Below the pieces are notes generated by a model, which was not told where the DNA came from, did no database searches, and saw nothing but the letters and a program-made list of their open reading frames with translations. From the sequence record NC_010105.1: a DNA stretch of 64,000 nucleotides; one strand, 5' to 3'. This DNA comes from Escherichia phage JS98. Made by a program: the position numbers and the translations under genes. Shown piece after piece: positions 4,344 to 62,262 of the stretch (position 1 is the first letter of the stretch; each line of letters begins with the position of its first letter).

Positions 4344-4607
4344 TTATTTCATATTATTGAAATAATCTTCTGCATTAAAATCGTTATCATGGTAAACTTT
4401 GGTAGACGTTTTGGCGTAGCCTTCAGCTGAGAACATATTAATCACAACTTTAATTGTATACCACTGTCCATCTTCGTTACCCATTACTGCATAGGTTTCA
4501 TACACTGGGTGTTCAGGACCGATAACCTTAATATCGTTAACAGTAGCACCAAATTCTTCAGGAACGCATTTCATAAAGAAATTAAACAATTCACCATAAT
4601 TATCCAT
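4344..4607 (-). CDS. hypothetical protein (87 aa)
   Basis: ORF track start 4622 is GTG; ATG 4607 with AAGGAG SD; early promoter immediately upstream. Confidence 0.55.
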   Translation of the reverse strand: MDNYGELFNFFMKCVPEEFGATVNDIKVIGPEHPVYETYAVMGNEDGQWYTIKVVINMFSAEGYAKTSTKVYHDNDFNAEDYFNNMK

Positions 4608-4628
4608 TTTACTCTCCTTCACACTGTT

Positions 4629-4671
4629 GTTTTGATAGGTCTATAGTATCATGTTTAAAGGAGGTGTAAAC
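4629..4671 (-). promoter_or_regulatory. early promoter with conserved downstream box
   Basis: Minus strand GTTTAC-N17-TGaTACTAT followed by conserved AGACCTATCAAAAC. Confidence 0.5.
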
Positions 4672-4706
4672 AACTTTGTGAAATTATTTTTAGTTTAAAC
4701 CCCCTA

Positions 4707-4728
4707 AAAGGAGACCAAAGTCTCCTTT
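4707..4728 (-). terminator. rho-independent terminator
   Basis: AAAGGAGAC-CAAA-GTCTCCTTT. Confidence 0.5.
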
Positions 4729-4730
4729 CA

Positions 4731-5348
4731 TTATTTACGGGTCTTTTCGAACTGTGCTGCGTCACCTGCAAGGCGGCGGGCTTGACGAAGTTTGTTATCA
4801 ATTTCTTCGTGCATAGGCTGGGTATACTTAAGGCCTTCAACCGTCAGGTAAAGACGATAGAGGTCCGGGGTATCTAGGTTGTTAATGTGCTGCCCATTAC
4901 GAAGGGCGTTGAATTCTCGAACGAGTTGTTTAGTTTCGGATTCGATTTCAGAAACCAAAGAAGCCAGCTGGTTATATTTTTTAACAATAGTGCTGGTGTC
5001 GAACTTGATTTTAGGTTTAGGAGCTTCTTTTACAGGCTCTGCTTTAGGTGTAGGTTTCGGCGCTGCAACTTTGGTCTGAGCCGCGGGTTTAGAAACAGGA
5101 GCTTTAGCTGGTTTAGCAGGCTTAGTAGAGCCACCGGCTACGATATCTTTAAAAGCTTTGGAAGCTTTGTAATATTCTTTCTGGCTACTAGTATCAAAAC
5201 CATACATATCATAAACGTTTTTAAAGAACTCGGTAGTGGTTTTAGTCCCGGAAATTTTATCATAAGCAGCTTGCCACATATCTTTAGTCATGCGCACGCC
5301 GGCTTCATTCAGAACGCTTTCGTTCAAAAATTCATTGTAAGTTTTCAT
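4731..5348 (-). CDS. internal head protein (IPIII-like) with capsid-targeting sequence
   Basis: N-terminus MKTYNEFLNE matches T4 IP capsid-targeting sequence MKTYQEFIAE; Pro/Ala/Lys-rich basic segment; late promoter TATAAATA upstream; hairpin terminator downstream. Confidence 0.65.
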   Translation of the reverse strand: MKTYNEFLNESVLNEAGVRMTKDMWQAAYDKISGTKTTTEFFKNVYDMYGFDTSSQKEYYKASKAFKDIVAGGSTKPAKPAKAPVSKPAAQTKVAAPKPTPKAEPVKEAPKPKIKFDTSTIVKKYNQLASLVSEIESETKQLVREFNALRNGQHINNLDTPDLYRLYLTVEGLKYTQPMHEEIDNKLRQARRLAGDAAQFEKTRK

Positions 5349-5376
5349 TATTGTTTCCTGTGTTAATTAACTTATC

Positions 5377-5384
5377 TATTTATA
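5377..5384 (-). promoter_or_regulatory. late promoter TATAAATA (IPIII-like gene)
   Basis: Exact motif on minus strand immediately downstream of terminator hairpin. Confidence 0.55.
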
Positions 5385-5390
5385 CAAAAA

Positions 5391-5412
5391 GGCCCAACCT
5401 TTCGGAAGGGCC
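5391..5412 (-). terminator. rho-independent terminator (repeat copy 1)
   Basis: GGCCCAACCTTTCGGAAGGGCC; U-run on minus strand. Confidence 0.55.
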
Positions 5413-5417
5413 GTAAA

Positions 5418-5972
5418 TCAGTTCTTGTAGAACCGGAACGGGTTCACGTGGAAGGCCAACATAGCTTTAGGGATTTTACGAGACAAAAGACTCTTAAGCT
5501 TCCAGCCACAGTACACGCGAAGGTAAAATGTGATTCCGCCGACCTTAAGATAAGGAACTGAAGCAAATACACCCCAGGCGTCATCATTCCACATCCACAA
5601 CCAACCATGGTGAGCTTTATCAGGAGAACCTGATTCTACGTCAGGATTACCACGATAATGGAATTCCGAGCTACAATCACGGCCTAGTTTATGATAAGCA
5701 AAGTTATAAGCTTTATTTCGCCATAGCCAAGCTACTCTCTGGAGATAAACACCACCAGGCATTTTCCTGATTTTAGCCCAACGTTTAATATGACCTTTAT
5801 CGCCGTCAATTGGATTATCGTATGTCATCATCCAATCAAAACCGTATGGCAATTTACCAGTCTTTTTATTATGAAAAGGAACCACAAAAGGCGCAAGGAT
5901 AACGGCTAGAACCATAGAGATAAAATCTAGTGGGACCAACAGAATCCAACTCAAATATTTTAAAAGTTTCAT
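5418..5972 (-). CDS. membrane-anchored protein (184 aa), late-expressed, unknown function
   Basis: N-terminal hydrophobic helix LSWILLVPLDFISMVLAVILAPFVV; Trp-rich C-terminal domain; AGGAAA SD; TATAAATA late promoter upstream and identical hairpins on both flanks. Confidence 0.6.
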   Translation of the reverse strand: MKLLKYLSWILLVPLDFISMVLAVILAPFVVPFHNKKTGKLPYGFDWMMTYDNPIDGDKGHIKRWAKIRKMPGGVYLQRVAWLWRNKAYNFAYHKLGRDCSSEFHYRGNPDVESGSPDKAHHGWLWMWNDDAWGVFASVPYLKVGGITFYLRVYCGWKLKSLLSRKIPKAMLAFHVNPFRFYKN

Positions 5973-5998
5973 ATTATTTCCTAAGTTAGTTTACTGTA

Positions 5999-6006
5999 TA
6001 TTTATA
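5999..6006 (-). promoter_or_regulatory. late promoter TATAAATA (membrane protein gene 5418-5972)
   Basis: Exact motif on minus strand immediately downstream of terminator hairpin. Confidence 0.55.
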
Positions 6007-6013
6007 CAAAAAA

Positions 6014-6035
6014 GGCCCAACCTTTCGGAAGGGCC
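6014..6035 (-). terminator. rho-independent terminator (repeat copy 2)
   Basis: Identical 22-nt hairpin; U-run on minus strand. Confidence 0.55.
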
Positions 6036-6205
6036 TTTAACCTAGGGTAACCTTGTCGGGGTTCCACCTGCTAGGCAAGTGTTCTGTGCGCCGTTTCAGC
6101 TGTGAGATAAGGGACTTTAAGAGGAACTCATGTACTCCTTAAAGTCGGGTCTTATTCAGGGAACTTCAGTCCGACGACTTACCGGTAGCGACCCGGTTTC
6201 TTGTT

Positions 6206-6281
6206 TGGTCGAGACAGTAGGGATCGAACCTACGACCTACGGTTTAGAAGACCGTTGCTCTTCCTTCTGAGCTATGCCTCG
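6206..6281 (-). tRNA. tRNA-Arg (anticodon UCU)
   Basis: Cloverleaf readable: acceptor CGAGGCA/TGTCTCG, anticodon stem ACGGT/ACCGT with loop CTTCTAA, T-arm GGTTCGATCC, 3' CCA encoded. Confidence 0.75.
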
Positions 6282-6285
6282 TATT

Positions 6286-6360
6286 TGGCGGACATGCATG
6301 GATTCGAACCATGGACCAATTGATTAACAGTCAACTGCTCTACCGCTGAGCTACACATCC
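6286..6360 (-). tRNA. tRNA-Asn (anticodon GUU)
   Basis: 5' GGATGTGTAGCTCAGCGGTAGAGC..., anticodon loop CTGTTAA, T-arm GGTTCGAATCC, 3' CCA encoded. Confidence 0.75.
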
Positions 6361-6364
6361 AAAT

Positions 6365-6438
6365 TGGTGGCCCTGGGTGGAATCGAACCACCATCCAGCG
6401 ATTATGAGTCGCTCGCTTGACCGTCCAGCTACAGGGCC
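6365..6438 (-). tRNA. tRNA with CAU anticodon (Met, or Ile if lysidine-modified)
   Basis: Acceptor GGCCCTG/CAGGGCC, anticodon stem AGCGA/TCGCT with loop CTCATAA, T-arm GGTTCGATTCC, 3' CCA encoded. Confidence 0.75.
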
Positions 6439-6443
6439 TTAAT

Positions 6444-6710
6444 TTAAATTACAAATCCAGCAGGAGCATTATCGTCTTTAGCCATGTGCTGAATTGTATG
6501 ATAAGTCATTTCTTCAGGAGCAACCAGATAAGCCGCAGCATTAACTAGTGGAATTATTTTTGGTTTAGCGAATGTGCTATCGGCAATTGCCATAAAGGGC
6601 TCGCCGTCGGTCTCAACTTCGCCAAATTGGCATTCATATGAAATAGAACAACGTTTAGTAGTTGTTGTCTTGGTTTCTGGGTCATAAAAAGCTAATTTTA
6701 ATACTAACAT
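6444..6710 (-). CDS. hypothetical protein (88 aa)
   Basis: ORF track start 6716 is GTG; ATG 6710 with GAGGTG SD. Confidence 0.55.
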   Translation of the reverse strand: MLVLKLAFYDPETKTTTTKRCSISYECQFGEVETDGEPFMAIADSTFAKPKIIPLVNAAAYLVAPEEMTYHTIQHMAKDDNAPAGFVI

Positions 6711-12238: not shown

Positions 12239-12246
12239 TATAAATA
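12239..12246 (+). promoter_or_regulatory. late promoter TATAAATA (gene 53)
   Basis: Exact TATAAATA about 28 nt upstream of ATG. Confidence 0.6.
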
Positions 12247-12273
12247 TTAATATTATTTATACTCGGAGGCCCT

Positions 12274-47778: not shown

Positions 47779-47800
47779 TATAAATATAGTTATATTTATA
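47779..47800. promoter_or_regulatory. divergent late promoters (plus for uvsW, minus for inh/hoc)
   Basis: TATAAATA on plus at 47779-47786 and on minus at 47793-47800. Confidence 0.55.
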
Positions 47801-51413: not shown

Positions 51414-51425
51414 TATTTATAAATA
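51414..51425. promoter_or_regulatory. overlapping divergent late promoters (minus for 26/25, plus for 51-27-28-29)
   Basis: Sequence TATTTATAAATA contains TATAAATA on both strands. Confidence 0.55.
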
Positions 51426-57616: not shown

Positions 57617-57643
57617 AAAAAAGGAGAGCGTAAGCTCTCCTTT
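57617..57643. terminator. bidirectional terminator between gene 54 and minus-strand genes
   Basis: AAAAAGGAGAGC-GTAA-GCTCTCCTTT. Confidence 0.55.
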
Positions 57644-57649
57644 AGGGGT

Positions 57650-57940
57650 TTATTTACGGAACGAAATGAAACCTGCTGCTGTCATTAATGGCTGCTTTTT
57701 AACAAAGACCGTAATAGAAATAGGAGCTTCAGATTCAAGCTGGCCGGTTACTACACCATTAAAGATATTTTCAGTTTGTTCGGGTTGTGAAAAATTTTCA
57801 ATTGGACGTAAGTCGAACTGCTTGTCTTCGCCGAAAACTCGACGTAATTCATTACCGACTGCACTGTCGAACTCTTCAGAAGCAGGGATAACGTTTTCAA
57901 CTACCAGTTCTTGACCGTTAAAGCGGAATGCAGATTTCAT
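57650..57940 (-). CDS. hypothetical protein (96 aa), alt.-1 position
   Basis: ATG with GAGGAG SD; early promoter upstream at 57969-57998. Confidence 0.55.
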   Translation of the reverse strand: MKSAFRFNGQELVVENVIPASEEFDSAVGNELRRVFGEDKQFDLRPIENFSQPEQTENIFNGVVTGQLESEAPISITVFVKKQPLMTAAGFISFRK

Positions 57941-57954
57941 AATGTTCTCCTCAT

Positions 57955-57998
57955 GTTTGTGTAAGGTAATAGTACCACATCCTTGTGGTGTTGTAAAC
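57955..57998 (-). promoter_or_regulatory. early promoter (diverged copy of the conserved box)
   Basis: Minus strand GTTTAC-N18-TACTAT-TACCTTACACAAAC. Confidence 0.4.
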
Positions 57999-60124
57999 TA
58001 CATTTTGAATTTATTTGGTAAAGAAGAGATGTCCAAAGATGCAGCAAGGATTTCCATAGCCTCATTACTTTCTGAAACAGATTCTGAAACTAGGAATTCT
58101 TTAAACCCGTTCATCAATTTAACTTCACCGGTTTCCATCAGATGGTCACCATCGTAAACGGACTCACTGAGTTCTGAAGGAGATGTCACTGTAGCTTCCA
58201 TAAGGTATTTGTGAGATACTCTATCATTCATAGCAAAAGCCGCTACTTTATCAACCTTCAACAATAATCCTCGCGGAAGGATAATTTCTGCTTCTTCGGA
58301 ATATTCTGTAAGGTCACCAGGAGCGATAACTTTAACTGCTTCAGCACCTCGAATAACCATACCGATTTCAGCAATCCTGTCTGCAGGGCCTTCAGGTGCA
58401 ATTGGATTACCGAACTCGTCTTCTTCCCATTCTACCTCTTCATCATCAACTTCGCCTACATCAGATGAACTACCACTGGCTAATTTAAACAACTCATCAG
58501 CGGAGGATAAAGAACCTTCATCACCAACAAAAACTGCTTGGTTGTCGAGGGCCATATAATTTTTACCAAATTCGCCAAAGATATTAGGCTTTAATGAAGC
58601 AGACACAAAGTTCTTAAAGTAAAATGTTTTGTTATCAATATTATGGCGCAGAATTTTGTATGGTAAATCCTGACCACGATACAAAATAGTACCCTTAGGA
58701 AGTTTAATACCCTTGGTAAATGCTGAGTCTAAATCCTTAATCAATTTAATAGCTGTTGTATTGTTTTCGGATTCAGGTTTACCTAAAAGGAATAAGTTCA
58801 TAGGAGCATATTCAGCCGCACAATATTCAATAATGGCATTGCTTTCGTCTTTGGTCAAGCCCTTAGGTTTAATGAGCTCGCCTGAATAAGCATATGCATC
58901 GCTAATAGAATCGTTAATCAGTTTATAAACGGCTTCCATAGCGAAAGCAATTCGGGATGCTTTCTCTGAAGGAGACCCCTGAAAACGGGCACTCAGGTTA
59001 TTAACAATTCTCTTAATAATATCCAGACTATTGGTAGTATTGATTTGAGAAAGGCCACTTAAAAGTCTATCGACTTCCGTATTAAAAAATGCCATATTAT
59101 TAGAGTAAATTTCAAACCCTTGTTTATCTCTATTAGCATAATTTAGTTTAAATTTACTATCAGTCATTAAAGCGTGCGTGAGAGCAATGGTGTATCTAAA
59201 GTTGGCAAGGTCCTCACTCTTAGATTTAAACTGAGAGGCCTGACGCATTTTAGTAATAGCACCTTTTTTAAAGTTCTGACTAATCTGCTCAATACCTTCG
59301 TTCTCAGGGCCTTCGGCCGAGTGAACAGGGACAGAAGCTTCAAACTCGTTATAAACCTGCAATTCTTTAGGTGATAAAGTTTCAGGTTCGGCAGTAGAAT
59401 ACTGCGCTGCTGCAGCCATACGACGGGAAATCTTAGTACGAGAAATAACAGCCTTATCGGTACGTTTCTCTTCAACCTGTGCAATAGATGCTGCTACGGC
59501 TTCGACCTTACTTACAGCCTGGCCGGTTTTCTTAGAAACATAAACTTCACCGACTTTAGACTCAACCTTGGTATAAAGGTCCGCATCAATTTCAGGCATA
59601 CCCTTGATATCTTCGATATTAGTGCCACGACGTGCTAAAAGAACGTATGTATGTTTACCACTAAACTGGAACATATCATCGACAACTTTAAACTTACCAC
59701 CGGTACGGGCCATCGCCAAACGAGCTAATACACGCTGAACAGTAGGGCCTTTACCTTTCATTTTCTTGGTAGGGAAACGGAATAAAACCGCATCCATTTT
59801 AAGTTTATTTACTTGTTCGTATATCGTATCGAAAATAGTATTCAATGTACCAAGTGGGTCGGAACCAAGGCCACCTTTGAGTTCAGCCGGGGCACCCTTG
59901 CTCGACAAACTCATTAAAATAACATGGACATATTTGTCGCCTGGCTTAACCATTTTAATAGCGTCTCCTTGAGACGCATAAGATACCATACGAGCAACCA
60001 GGTTATCGTTACCCGGTGCATGGATAGAGAAAATCTGTGGAATACCGGAACCCGGTTTAAGATTTGTTACTGGATAGTTTTTAGCGGAATCACTATCAAA
60101 AACCTCGTTTAAATTTTCCATCAT
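57998..60124 (-). CDS. Alt-like ADP-ribosyltransferase, paralog 1 (708 aa)
   Basis: N-terminal half alignable with downstream paralog; C-terminal ART-like elements YRG, SAS, E-A-E before IILPRGLL; position of alt in T4. Confidence 0.75.
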   Translation of the reverse strand: MMENLNEVFDSDSAKNYPVTNLKPGSGIPQIFSIHAPGNDNLVARMVSYASQGDAIKMVKPGDKYVHVILMSLSSKGAPAELKGGLGSDPLGTLNTIFDTIYEQVNKLKMDAVLFRFPTKKMKGKGPTVQRVLARLAMARTGGKFKVVDDMFQFSGKHTYVLLARRGTNIEDIKGMPEIDADLYTKVESKVGEVYVSKKTGQAVSKVEAVAASIAQVEEKRTDKAVISRTKISRRMAAAAQYSTAEPETLSPKELQVYNEFEASVPVHSAEGPENEGIEQISQNFKKGAITKMRQASQFKSKSEDLANFRYTIALTHALMTDSKFKLNYANRDKQGFEIYSNNMAFFNTEVDRLLSGLSQINTTNSLDIIKRIVNNLSARFQGSPSEKASRIAFAMEAVYKLINDSISDAYAYSGELIKPKGLTKDESNAIIEYCAAEYAPMNLFLLGKPESENNTTAIKLIKDLDSAFTKGIKLPKGTILYRGQDLPYKILRHNIDNKTFYFKNFVSASLKPNIFGEFGKNYMALDNQAVFVGDEGSLSSADELFKLASGSSSDVGEVDDEEVEWEEDEFGNPIAPEGPADRIAEIGMVIRGAEAVKVIAPGDLTEYSEEAEIILPRGLLLKVDKVAAFAMNDRVSHKYLMEATVTSPSELSESVYDGDHLMETGEVKLMNGFKEFLVSESVSESNEAMEILAASLDISSLPNKFKM

Positions 60125-62212
60125 TTACCCTTGGATGAATTTTTCTGGTATGCCATAGAGGTCTATGCATGAAGCCAAAAGAGGCAGTACGTCAAACCGT
60201 GTAGATTTAACAAATGAATCAAAAGATACAGGGCTTTCGGAAGTATCGAAGTCATCTTGGTATACGACCAACTCACCAGTTTCCATTAGTACGTCACCAT
60301 CATACACTACAGATTCTTGAAGCTCATCTGATGTCATAACTTCAGCTTGAATAAATTTATTGTTAGACACCGCCCCAGAACCAGTATTGGCTGATGCATC
60401 CACGATTTTATCTATTTTTACAAGTAGCCCGCGTGGTAAAATTATTTCCTTTTCGTTGGCATGCATGCTTAATTGGCCAGGATAAATCACGTTAACCTTA
60501 TGAGCGCCACTAATAGCCCAGCCAACATCAACACGGATTTGATCCGGTGCATACATATGTGTACGCACTTGACTAGCCGAGATGGTAACGCCTTCGTCAT
60601 TATTATCAATGTTTAATTCTTTTCGAACATCATCGGAAGCAAGACCAATAGCCGCATTCTCTTTAAAGCCACCAAAAATGATTGGAGCCAATGAGGTTGA
60701 AACATAGTTTCTAAAATAGAATACCTTATTTTTAACTAATGCTTCGTAGATAGGCGCGCGCAAAGATTGTGCTCTATAAACCATTATTCCTTCAGGTAAA
60801 CGGTCACCATTTTTAAAGGCAGAATCCATTCCATCAATAGCACGTTTAACTTCGCTTTCGTCCAAAACTTCATAAAAGCCCGGTTTATAACGGCCAAGAA
60901 GGACATTGTTAATATCAATATAAGCTGAAGAGGCGTATTCTCTGATAGCTCGTTTTTCTGCAAGTGTATATTGTTTAGGGTCTCGAGATGTTGTTATATT
61001 AAGAATTTCTCTAGTTGATTCTATAGCGTATGTATACATTATCTTAGACAAGAATGAAGACTTACGTTGTTTCCATACTCTTTCACTGTTTTCATTCAAT
61101 ATCTCTTTTTCCAAATGGAAATTGTCTTTTCTATAATCTTCAAACCAATCACTTTTAATAGATTCTGCGATTTCATTAGCAGCTTCAACAAAGGCGGCTA
61201 AAGCTTTAACTGACGTGGTTTTTTCATTTTTAATTTTTTTGACAAATTTTTCTAAAGAAGAGTTAATTTTATCACCGTAAGAAACTTCATCCGCAAATTT
61301 AAATGAATCATCCATAGTATTATAAATTTTAAAATCAATAGCCGTAGCCAGCTTATCCTTAGCTGTTTCGGATGATAATGATAATTCAACTTCGGCTGCT
61401 TGTGGAATTAATTCCGCCGTAGCAGGCGCACTGAACTCATTGGCAGTTTGTTCATATTTCTGAAATAATTCACCTTCATTACGGTCTGCTTCTAATGACT
61501 GGCTTGCCGCAATCGCACGACGAGAAATCTTAGTCTTGGTTATAACCATTTTATCAGTGCGACGTTCTTCAACTTTAGCAATACTGCCGGCAATAGCGGT
61601 TTCTTTAGTAACCTGAGCGCCTTCTTTTTTAGAAATATAAACTTCACCAACATCAGAATCTACCTTAGTATATAATTCGGCATTAATTCCAGGCATACCT
61701 TTGATATCTTCGATATCAGCTTGTTTACGAACTACTAGGATATAAGTATGTTTACCGGTAAATTGGTACATGGCTGGAACTACTTTAAAACGTCCACCGG
61801 TTTTCTGTGCTACCAAACGTTGGATAATCCGTTGGACAATAGGTCCTTGTCCTTTCATTTTCTTGGTTGGAAAACGGAACATCACAGCATCCATACGAAG
61901 CTTTTTAACTTGTTCGAATACTACGTCGAAAATGGTATTAATAGCATCAATAGGAGTAGGGCCTAATCCACCTTTAAGTTCGGCTGGAGTACCTTTAGCT
62001 GATAAACTCATCAAAATAACGTGGGCATATTTATCACCTAATTTAACCTGTTTAATAGCATCGCCTTCAGAGGCATAAGATACCATACGAGCAACTAATT
62101 GGGATTCGGCGTCGCCAATCTTCCAAATCTGGGGTACTTTAAGTTTTGGGTTTAAGTTTACAGTAGGCAGGGTGCCTTCGGACTCAAACACCTCATTCAA
62201 TTGTTCGGTCAT
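60125..62212 (-). CDS. Alt-like ADP-ribosyltransferase, paralog 2 (695 aa)
   Basis: Paralogous to 57998-60124; C-terminal YRA, STS, E-K-E before IILPRGLL; GAGGA SD. Confidence 0.75.
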   Translation of the reverse strand: MTEQLNEVFESEGTLPTVNLNPKLKVPQIWKIGDAESQLVARMVSYASEGDAIKQVKLGDKYAHVILMSLSAKGTPAELKGGLGPTPIDAINTIFDVVFEQVKKLRMDAVMFRFPTKKMKGQGPIVQRIIQRLVAQKTGGRFKVVPAMYQFTGKHTYILVVRKQADIEDIKGMPGINAELYTKVDSDVGEVYISKKEGAQVTKETAIAGSIAKVEERRTDKMVITKTKISRRAIAASQSLEADRNEGELFQKYEQTANEFSAPATAELIPQAAEVELSLSSETAKDKLATAIDFKIYNTMDDSFKFADEVSYGDKINSSLEKFVKKIKNEKTTSVKALAAFVEAANEIAESIKSDWFEDYRKDNFHLEKEILNENSERVWKQRKSSFLSKIMYTYAIESTREILNITTSRDPKQYTLAEKRAIREYASSAYIDINNVLLGRYKPGFYEVLDESEVKRAIDGMDSAFKNGDRLPEGIMVYRAQSLRAPIYEALVKNKVFYFRNYVSTSLAPIIFGGFKENAAIGLASDDVRKELNIDNNDEGVTISASQVRTHMYAPDQIRVDVGWAISGAHKVNVIYPGQLSMHANEKEIILPRGLLVKIDKIVDASANTGSGAVSNNKFIQAEVMTSDELQESVVYDGDVLMETGELVVYQDDFDTSESPVSFDSFVKSTRFDVLPLLASCIDLYGIPEKFIQG

Positions 62213-62262
62213 AATAATTCCTCTTTAATAACCGTATTTATGCCATAAAAGGCCCGAAGGCC

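Follow-up and report, generated by a model that had tools for sequence, protein, structure and literature searches.

The 64,000-nucleotide stretch of the Escherichia phage JS98 genome analyzed here (NC_010105.1; the window) carries two adjacent minus-strand genes, altA and altB, that belong to the family of the T4 protein Alt. Alt is an arginine-specific mono-ADP-ribosyltransferase that sits in the prohead core, is trimmed by gp21 and is injected with the DNA. Our analysis makes it likely that altA and altB encode two intact paralogues of T4 Alt, which would be made late, packaged in the head, processed by gp21 and injected as arginine ADP-ribosyltransferases with partly different substrates. 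The upstream paralogue, altA, encodes 695 residues (60125..62212, minus strand, as for all features located below unless stated otherwise), and its orthologue in phage JS10 is annotated alta. The downstream paralogue, altB, encodes 707 residues from a conserved second ATG (57998..60121) and shares 99% protein identity with the JS10 altb product. The genes are ordered 29, 48 and 54 on the plus strand, then alt.-3, altB, altA, alt.1 and 30 (DNA ligase) on the minus strand. Synteny comparison places altA and altB at the position of alt in T4, between gene 54/alt.-3 and alt.1/gene 30.

An earlier note on this DNA, made from the sequence alone, had described two adjacent minus-strand open reading frames (ORFs) of 695 and 708 residues, at 60125..62212 and 57998..60124, that abut as TAA-ATG with no spacer. 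Both ORFs are present, and in the window the junction reads ...CAAGGGTAAATGATGGAA, with TAA directly abutting ATG. However, the missing spacer is not conserved. The in-frame ATG at 60122-60124, immediately after the altA stop codon, results from a window-specific A-to-G change, and relatives have ATA or ATC at these positions: the junction is TAAATAATG (TAA-ATA-ATG) in JS10 and KIT01 and TAAATCATG (TAA-ATC-ATG) in T4. The conserved and annotated start of altB is therefore the second ATG (60121), which gives 707 residues and a spacer of 3 nt, and the 708-residue reading (57998..60124) probably does not use the real start.

Profile searches place both proteins in the Alt family, as the earlier note had proposed. 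PF03496 scores 65.0 and 100.1 bits for the two proteins, compared with a curated Pfam cutoff of 23.4, and both match phrog_802, 'Alt-like RNA polymerase ADP-ribosyltransferase', end to end over positions 1-674 of 674 (E-values of 1.2e-257 for altA and 8.9e-252 for altB). The precomputed domains of homologues are PF03496 and PF26846. Alignment with T4 Alt, ModA and ModB, which the note had suggested as a check, shows the R-S-ExE residues intact and in register in both paralogues. The catalytic residues of altA are R480, S505-T-S507 and E587-K-E589, and those of altB are R482, S507-A-S509 and E610-A-E612. Four positions are invariant across the five proteins, namely the catalytic Arg, the leading Ser of S-x-S and the two Glu residues of E-x-E, corresponding to R478, S503, E574 and E576 in T4 Alt and to R72, S96, E163 and E165 in ModA. 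Catalytically dead mutants have been described as Alt 'E577A' and ModA E165A (PMC11404850). The one-residue offset in Alt numbering, E577 versus E576, fits an upstream in-frame ATG seen in T4 alt. The ExE form accompanies arginine-directed transfer in the C3-like/VIP2-like clade (clade assignment, PMC5512222).

In an alignment of 66 family members, 65 retain R, S-x-S and ExE. In the remaining protein, D replaces the catalytic Arg and SET replaces STS, with ExE kept. This protein is probably an inactive ADP-ribosyltransferase (ART). The S-A-S form of altB occurs in only 2 of the 66 and is also found in ModA. Taken by their sequences, altA and altB are thus full-length Alt-family proteins that retain the R / S-x-S / E-x-E residues.

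The ART domain of altA spans residues 411-625 (60338..60982; PF03496), and that of altB spans residues 419-649 (58175..58867), the latter placed by PF03496, a structural model and Foldseek. The altB model was built with AlphaFold (AF2) from the 66-sequence alignment, with a predicted local distance difference test score (pLDDT) of 77 and a predicted template modeling score (pTM) of 0.72. It shows four parts: an alpha/beta N-domain (18-196), a long helical region (205-417), the ART domain (424-646) and a partly disordered tail. The ART core is confidently modeled around the motifs (pLDDT 85-96). Against the PDB, Foldseek matched this domain to Vis, Certhrax, C3bot and CDTa with E-values of 1e-6 to 1e-4, so the structure prediction of the altB catalytic domain agrees with the proposed enzyme identity. 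The model indicates a C3/VIP2-type ART fold for altB, and the sequence of the altA catalytic half points to the same fold. An acidic insertion of 67 residues (516-582; 58376..58576; 19 D/E versus 3 K/R), predicted to be disordered (pLDDT <50), sits in altB between S-x-S and the strand preceding the ExE loop. A shorter acidic insert occupies the same place in the second alt copy of T2 and T6. Sequence searches and an N-domain profile retrieved no solved Alt structure, and Foldseek retrieved only generic R-S-E toxins. These C3-like/VIP2-like toxins (Vis, Certhrax, C3bot, CDTa and iota) share the ART fold and the R / STS / ExE arrangement with altA and altB, but are only ~12-18% identical to them and rely on secretion or a binary-toxin partner instead of delivery from a phage head. 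Alt proteins, unlike the toxins, also carry large N-terminal and helical regions.

The two paralogues align over their full length at 41% identity (BLASTP, E 7e-152), far above chance, with a steep regional gradient: 65% in residues 1-235, 17% in the middle region, 36% in the ART domain and 39% in the C-terminal tail. The claim of a paralogous N-terminal third followed by diverged sequence is therefore borne out, and the motifs that had been quoted in its support all occur in both proteins. These are LVARMVSYAS.GDAIK.VK.GDKY.HVILMSLS.KG.PAELKGGLG and FRFPTKKMKG.GP and, near the C-terminus, YRA/YRG, STS/SAS and EKE/EAE (altA/altB), the last immediately preceding IILPRGLL.

Synonymous sites are saturated between altA and altB in every region (proportion of synonymous differences, pS, 0.65-0.76), which indicates that the duplication is old. 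The N-domain shares this saturation (pS 0.65) and has a ratio of nonsynonymous to synonymous substitution (dN/dS) of 0.20. Recent gene conversion as the source of N-domain similarity is ruled out by the saturation, and the similarity appears instead to be kept by purifying selection. N-domains follow phage lineage and not paralogue type, with 65-68% identity between the paralogues of one genome and 42-46% between genera, and this lineage-wise co-variation reflects old conversion, old exchange or co-evolution but no recent event. Compared with its JS10 and KIT01 orthologues, altB has a dN/dS of 0.00-0.07, and its protein is 99-100% identical to JS10 altB despite 3-5% nucleotide divergence. Both copies thus show the signature of purifying selection. 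With both ORFs intact and an altB dN/dS of at most 0.07, neither resembles a pseudogene, the outcome that the earlier note had named as evidence against itself.

Both proteins also carry candidate processing sites. T4 Alt is a prohead-core protein present in ~40 copies per head (PMC9026906), and gp21 cuts it after ITE-6 and LTE-619, with the loss of 63 C-terminal residues (PMC5694885). In the T4 Alt sequence, the final residues of ITE and LTE are indeed numbers 6 and 619. The T4 cut sites align with LNE-7 and LQE-633 in altA and with LNE-6 and LSE-653 in altB. The predicted C-terminal propeptide of altA, which aligns from T4 LTE-619, comprises the 62 residues after LQE-633 plus the stop codon (60125..60313). 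That of altB comprises the 54 residues after LSE-653, ending in KFKM, plus the stop codon (57998..58162), and its 3' end is conserved in T4 alt.-2. The predicted mature proteins are 69.9 kDa (altA) and 71.1 kDa (altB). Incorporation of both proteins into the head is suggested because these (L/I)xE motifs sit exactly at the T4 Alt cut positions.

The signals around the genes suggest one late altA-altB-alt.-3 transcript. A late-promoter-like box, CATAAATA (62235..62242), lies upstream of altA, one mismatch from the T4 late box TATAAATA. It occupies the position of a perfect TATAAATA box upstream of alt in T4, T2 and T6, and the CATAAATA variant is conserved in JS10, KIT01 and MN04. Between alt.1 and altA is a hairpin, GGCCTTCGGGCC (62251..62262), identical in T4, T2 and T6; a conserved terminator upstream of alt has been noted before (PMC1524935). 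At the other end, the 96-residue alt.-3 homologue (57650..57940) is the final gene of the presumed unit, and a terminator-like hairpin with a 10 bp stem and a T run (57620..57643) separates it from the convergent gene 54. A late promoter of altB's own was not found: no TATAAATA occurs within altA, and the one-mismatch sites there are not placed ahead of altB. A separate altB promoter was accordingly rejected, a sigma-70-like scan also being at background (14 found versus 16 expected). The single late transcript is proposed because of the hairpin and late-like box upstream of altA, the lack of a box before altB and the hairpin after alt.-3.

Comparison with relatives indicates that the pair is old and widespread. 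Over the 4.9 kb around the alt genes, nucleotide identity is 99.1% with Escherichia phage MN04 and 91-97% with other JS98/JS10-type phages, and by sequence the window is from a JS98/JS10-type phage of the genus Dhakavirus, Tevenvirinae. The alta and altb genes of JS10, JS98, MN04 and IME08 are direct orthologues of the window pair and are annotated as Alt RNA polymerase ADP-ribosylases; the names alta and altb come from the JS10 record, and in MN04 both products are labeled NAD(+)--arginine ADP-ribosyltransferase. KIT01, UGJNEcP3/4, WG01 and others have three alt copies. T2 and T6 each carry two full-length tandem alt genes (697 and 685 residues). Their second copy is 45%, 59% and 58% identical to altB in the middle region, ART domain and tail, versus 17%, 35% and 37% to altA. 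It also ends in KFKM, as altB does, with the acidic insert at the same site. These comparisons identify the T2/T6 second copy as altB type and indicate that the A/B split predates the divergence of Tequatrovirus and Dhakavirus.

T4 Alt (gpAlt, NP_049811) resembles altA and altB in genome position, length class, upstream hairpin and late-promoter-like box. It also shares their domain order (N-domain, helical middle region, R-S-ExE ART domain, C-terminal tail) and the gp21-type motifs at both homologous positions. Overall identity to T4 Alt is nonetheless just 44% for altA and 35% for altB, falling to 16-24% in the middle region, and altB differs from T4 Alt in its S-A-S motif and acidic insert. 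T4 further differs in having one Alt and a remnant where the window has two copies. The T4 record derives alt.-1 and alt.-2 from a duplicated start of alt. We compared local coordinates 5040-5460 of T4 NC_000866 with window positions 57940-58030 and 60100-60150. The T4 alt/alt.-1 junction is homologous to the altA/altB junction, and the T4 alt.-2 region closes with the 19 nt TTCAAAATGTAGTTTACAA, an exact match to the altB terminus (K-F-K-M-stop) and the sequence downstream. Because the 5' junction matches that of altA/altB and the 3' end matches the altB stop region, alt.-1/alt.-2 reads as the internally deleted remnant of a full second alt gene, and not merely as a duplicated 5' part. The T2/T6 pair and T4 alt.-1/alt.-2 share with the window the tandem arrangement and the TAA-ATN-ATG junction, but of the second copy T4 retains only two short ORFs, unlike T2, T6 and the window.

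The earlier note had taken a single Alt, as in T4, for the baseline. This does not hold, given the two full-length copies of T2 and T6 and the second-copy remnant of T4 itself. A tblastn search with the N-domain found 1,742 places in 1,200 phage records, and most sampled Tequatrovirus rows show two places. The sequence record thus indicates that two Alt copies are the old and common state, and that T4, having lost its second copy, is atypical. Other phages likewise have truncated or split Alt genes in which the N-domain survives (P0121, 371 residues, from a metagenome contig; BFVD matches of 211-484 residues), and the Alt catalytic half seems to have been lost repeatedly, as in the T4 second copy. 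The tandem pair is already annotated and published and is not new, so it changes nothing for specialists. Alt paralogues have been reported in RB49, 44RR and T4 (alt.-1/alt.-2), with a full-length duplicate in 44RR (Nolan et al. 2006, PMC1524935). A 2026 paper describes two Alt-like paralogues at 43% identity and already speculates on an expanded target range (PMC13600099). What our analysis adds is evolutionary, and the sequences support it on three counts: an ancient pair, the loss of one copy in T4, and recombining warhead cassettes. T4 is the model for Alt biology, and two or three Alts are present in most sampled Tequatrovirus rows and in the Dhakavirus genomes that we examined. The finding is of modest importance and bears on generalizing T4 results.

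In the mechanism that we favor, both genes would be expressed late from the single transcript, and both proteins would be built into the head, with the conserved N-terminal domain and/or the terminal propeptides as handles. Both would then be injected and ADP-ribosylate arginines of host proteins, with substrate sets that differ at least partly. Different substrates are suggested by the strong divergence of three parts: the helical middle region, the ART loops and the acidic insertion specific to altB. Two different targets, possibly defense proteins, are plausible: identity is only 17-36% in the catalytic region and those next to it, and modification of MazF by T4 Alt has been reported (PMC10286901, citing Alawneh 2016). 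Several points weigh against this account. The (L/I)xE motifs are short and occur 8-11 times per protein, so their positional conservation is suggestive only. The box upstream of altA is CATAAATA and not the consensus TATAAATA. The argument for different substrates draws on divergence, and T4 Alt is promiscuous, so the target sets could overlap heavily. Our literature search, which was limited and does not prove absence, turned up no data on expression, virion proteome or enzyme activity for either protein or for any Dhakavirus.

The strongest competing explanation is a redundant or dosage pair, in which both proteins would have one main function, the modification of RNA polymerase alpha and the other customary Alt targets, and would have diverged by drift, or to evade host factors that block or undo ADP-ribosylation, and not toward new targets. 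T4 is viable with one functional copy, Alt being non-essential (PMC9026906), the second copy was lost in T4, truncated copies recur (P0121 and the split or short BFVD matches), and both paralogues have the same catalytic motifs. However, the A and B lineages have both persisted separately in two genera, selection on altB is strongly purifying, and divergence in the middle region and ART loops greatly exceeds that in the N-domain. On balance we consider redundancy unlikely. We regard as highly improbable that altB is inactive, either as a structural prohead-core component or as a decaying copy. Its rare S-A-S motif, the disordered acidic insert within its ART domain and the decay of the equivalent T4 gene would fit such a role. 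Yet the active T4 enzyme ModA likewise has S-A-S, R482, S507, S509 and E610/E612 are all present in altB, the ART core around them is confidently modeled, and the intact ORF and near-identity to JS10 altB, with its low dN/dS, argue against decay.

The divergence between alt genes is not confined to the two paralogues. In altA, the helical middle region and ART domain form an exchangeable cassette, approximately residues 248-630 (60325..61470). Matches at 78% coverage are part of the evidence for it. Window and JS10 altA agree closely at the two ends (N-domain 98% identical, tail 97%) and much less in between (middle region 36%, ART domain 60%). In 90-nt bins, identity of 94-100% drops to 40-80% over ~61,470-60,325 and then returns to 99%, with flanks of 88-100% overall. 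This low-identity stretch covers codons ~248 to ~630 and ends beside the predicted C-terminal cut site, and the nucleotide breakpoints are sharp, near codons 245 and 630. KIT01 copy 1, in turn, shares the window altA cassette at 98-100%, while its N-domain DNA is just 90% identical. T4 Alt and T6 Alt have breakpoints as in window altA (N-domain 100%, middle 32%, ART 64%, tail 94%). Between genera, JS10 altA and T6 alt share an ART segment at 94% protein and 87-94% nucleotide identity, whereas their N-domains are 46% and 42-64% identical, respectively, a pattern that identifies the segment as an inter-genus transfer.

The same pattern extends through the 66 family members, where 36 sequence pairs combine N-domain identity of 90% or more with ART-domain identity below 70%. 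Identities of the middle region and ART domain correlate closely (r = 0.90), and those of the N-domain and ART domain less so (r = 0.62). These comparisons indicate that the middle-plus-ART segment has been exchanged repeatedly, within and between genera, by recombination between conserved flanks. The middle (third) copy of KIT01 (local coordinates 4526-6571) is itself chimeric, with an N-domain 89% like altB, a tail 63% like altA and a cassette that shares just 20-40% identity with each of the other types examined. When the altB middle-plus-ART region was used as the query of an exhaustive search, 89 representatives out of 1.84 billion matched. Almost all of them are as long as an Alt protein, and the search gave no sign of a non-Alt origin for the cassette. 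Cassette exchange is the part that we did not find described: the literature searched held no account of alt cassette mosaicism, although the search was limited and does not prove absence. It offers a concrete and cheap experimental handle and would make what Alt is for a comparative question.

These exchanges recall polymorphic toxin systems, in which a conserved N-terminal module is likewise joined to a variable catalytic 'warhead' swapped by recombination. A broader reading, which we put forward tentatively, is that the T-even alt locus is a polymorphic effector array of one to three copies, in which a lineage-specific N-domain and propeptide flank a swappable warhead, diversifying the host proteins that are modified. 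The flanks would serve both as handles for packaging and gp21 processing and as homology arms for recombination, and the targets, possibly defense proteins, would be hit at injection. Unlike polymorphic toxin loci, the alt locus has neither immunity genes nor orphan warhead cassettes: a search of the locus for cognate immunity genes and N-domain-less ART cassettes found only full-length alt copies and the small conserved alt.-3 and alt.1. Every alt copy is full-length with its own N-domain, and the warheads are variants of one ART family.

The N-terminal domain comprises residues 1-235 in altA (61508..62212, including the LNE-7 motif; alpha/beta in an AF2 model with pLDDT 88) and residues 1-238 in altB (59408..60121, with the LNE-6 motif). 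A model of altA residues 1-239 (61496-62212) gave Foldseek matches to large uncharacterized proteins of unrelated myoviruses among the viral models of BFVD (E 1e-5 to 1e-8, template modeling score 0.45-0.6, 10-18% identity). The matches include proteins of Vibrio phage VP-1, Dickeya phage RC-2014, Shigella phage MK-13, Erwinia phage phiEa2809 and Agrobacterium phage Atu_ph07, and some are labeled zeta-toxin and deaminase domain. As a weaker lead from these models, the N-domain fold may be a general head-delivery module fronting different effectors. A sequence search for N-domain effector fusions returned only two truncated Alt-like proteins, P0121 and P0122, and is uninformative in that it apparently favors matches of similar length. 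That the N-domain is a second enzyme, a GNAT-like acyltransferase that would make both Alt paralogues two-headed effectors with this activity in common, is scarcely credible, the structural resemblance being weak and without sequence support, with no significant profile or structural match to GNAT families.

Elsewhere in the window, perfect TATAAATA late-promoter boxes number 18, versus 7.7 expected. Three pairs of these boxes lie back to back or overlap on opposite strands (12239-12261, 47779-47800 and 51414-51425), an arrangement that suggests divergent late promoters.

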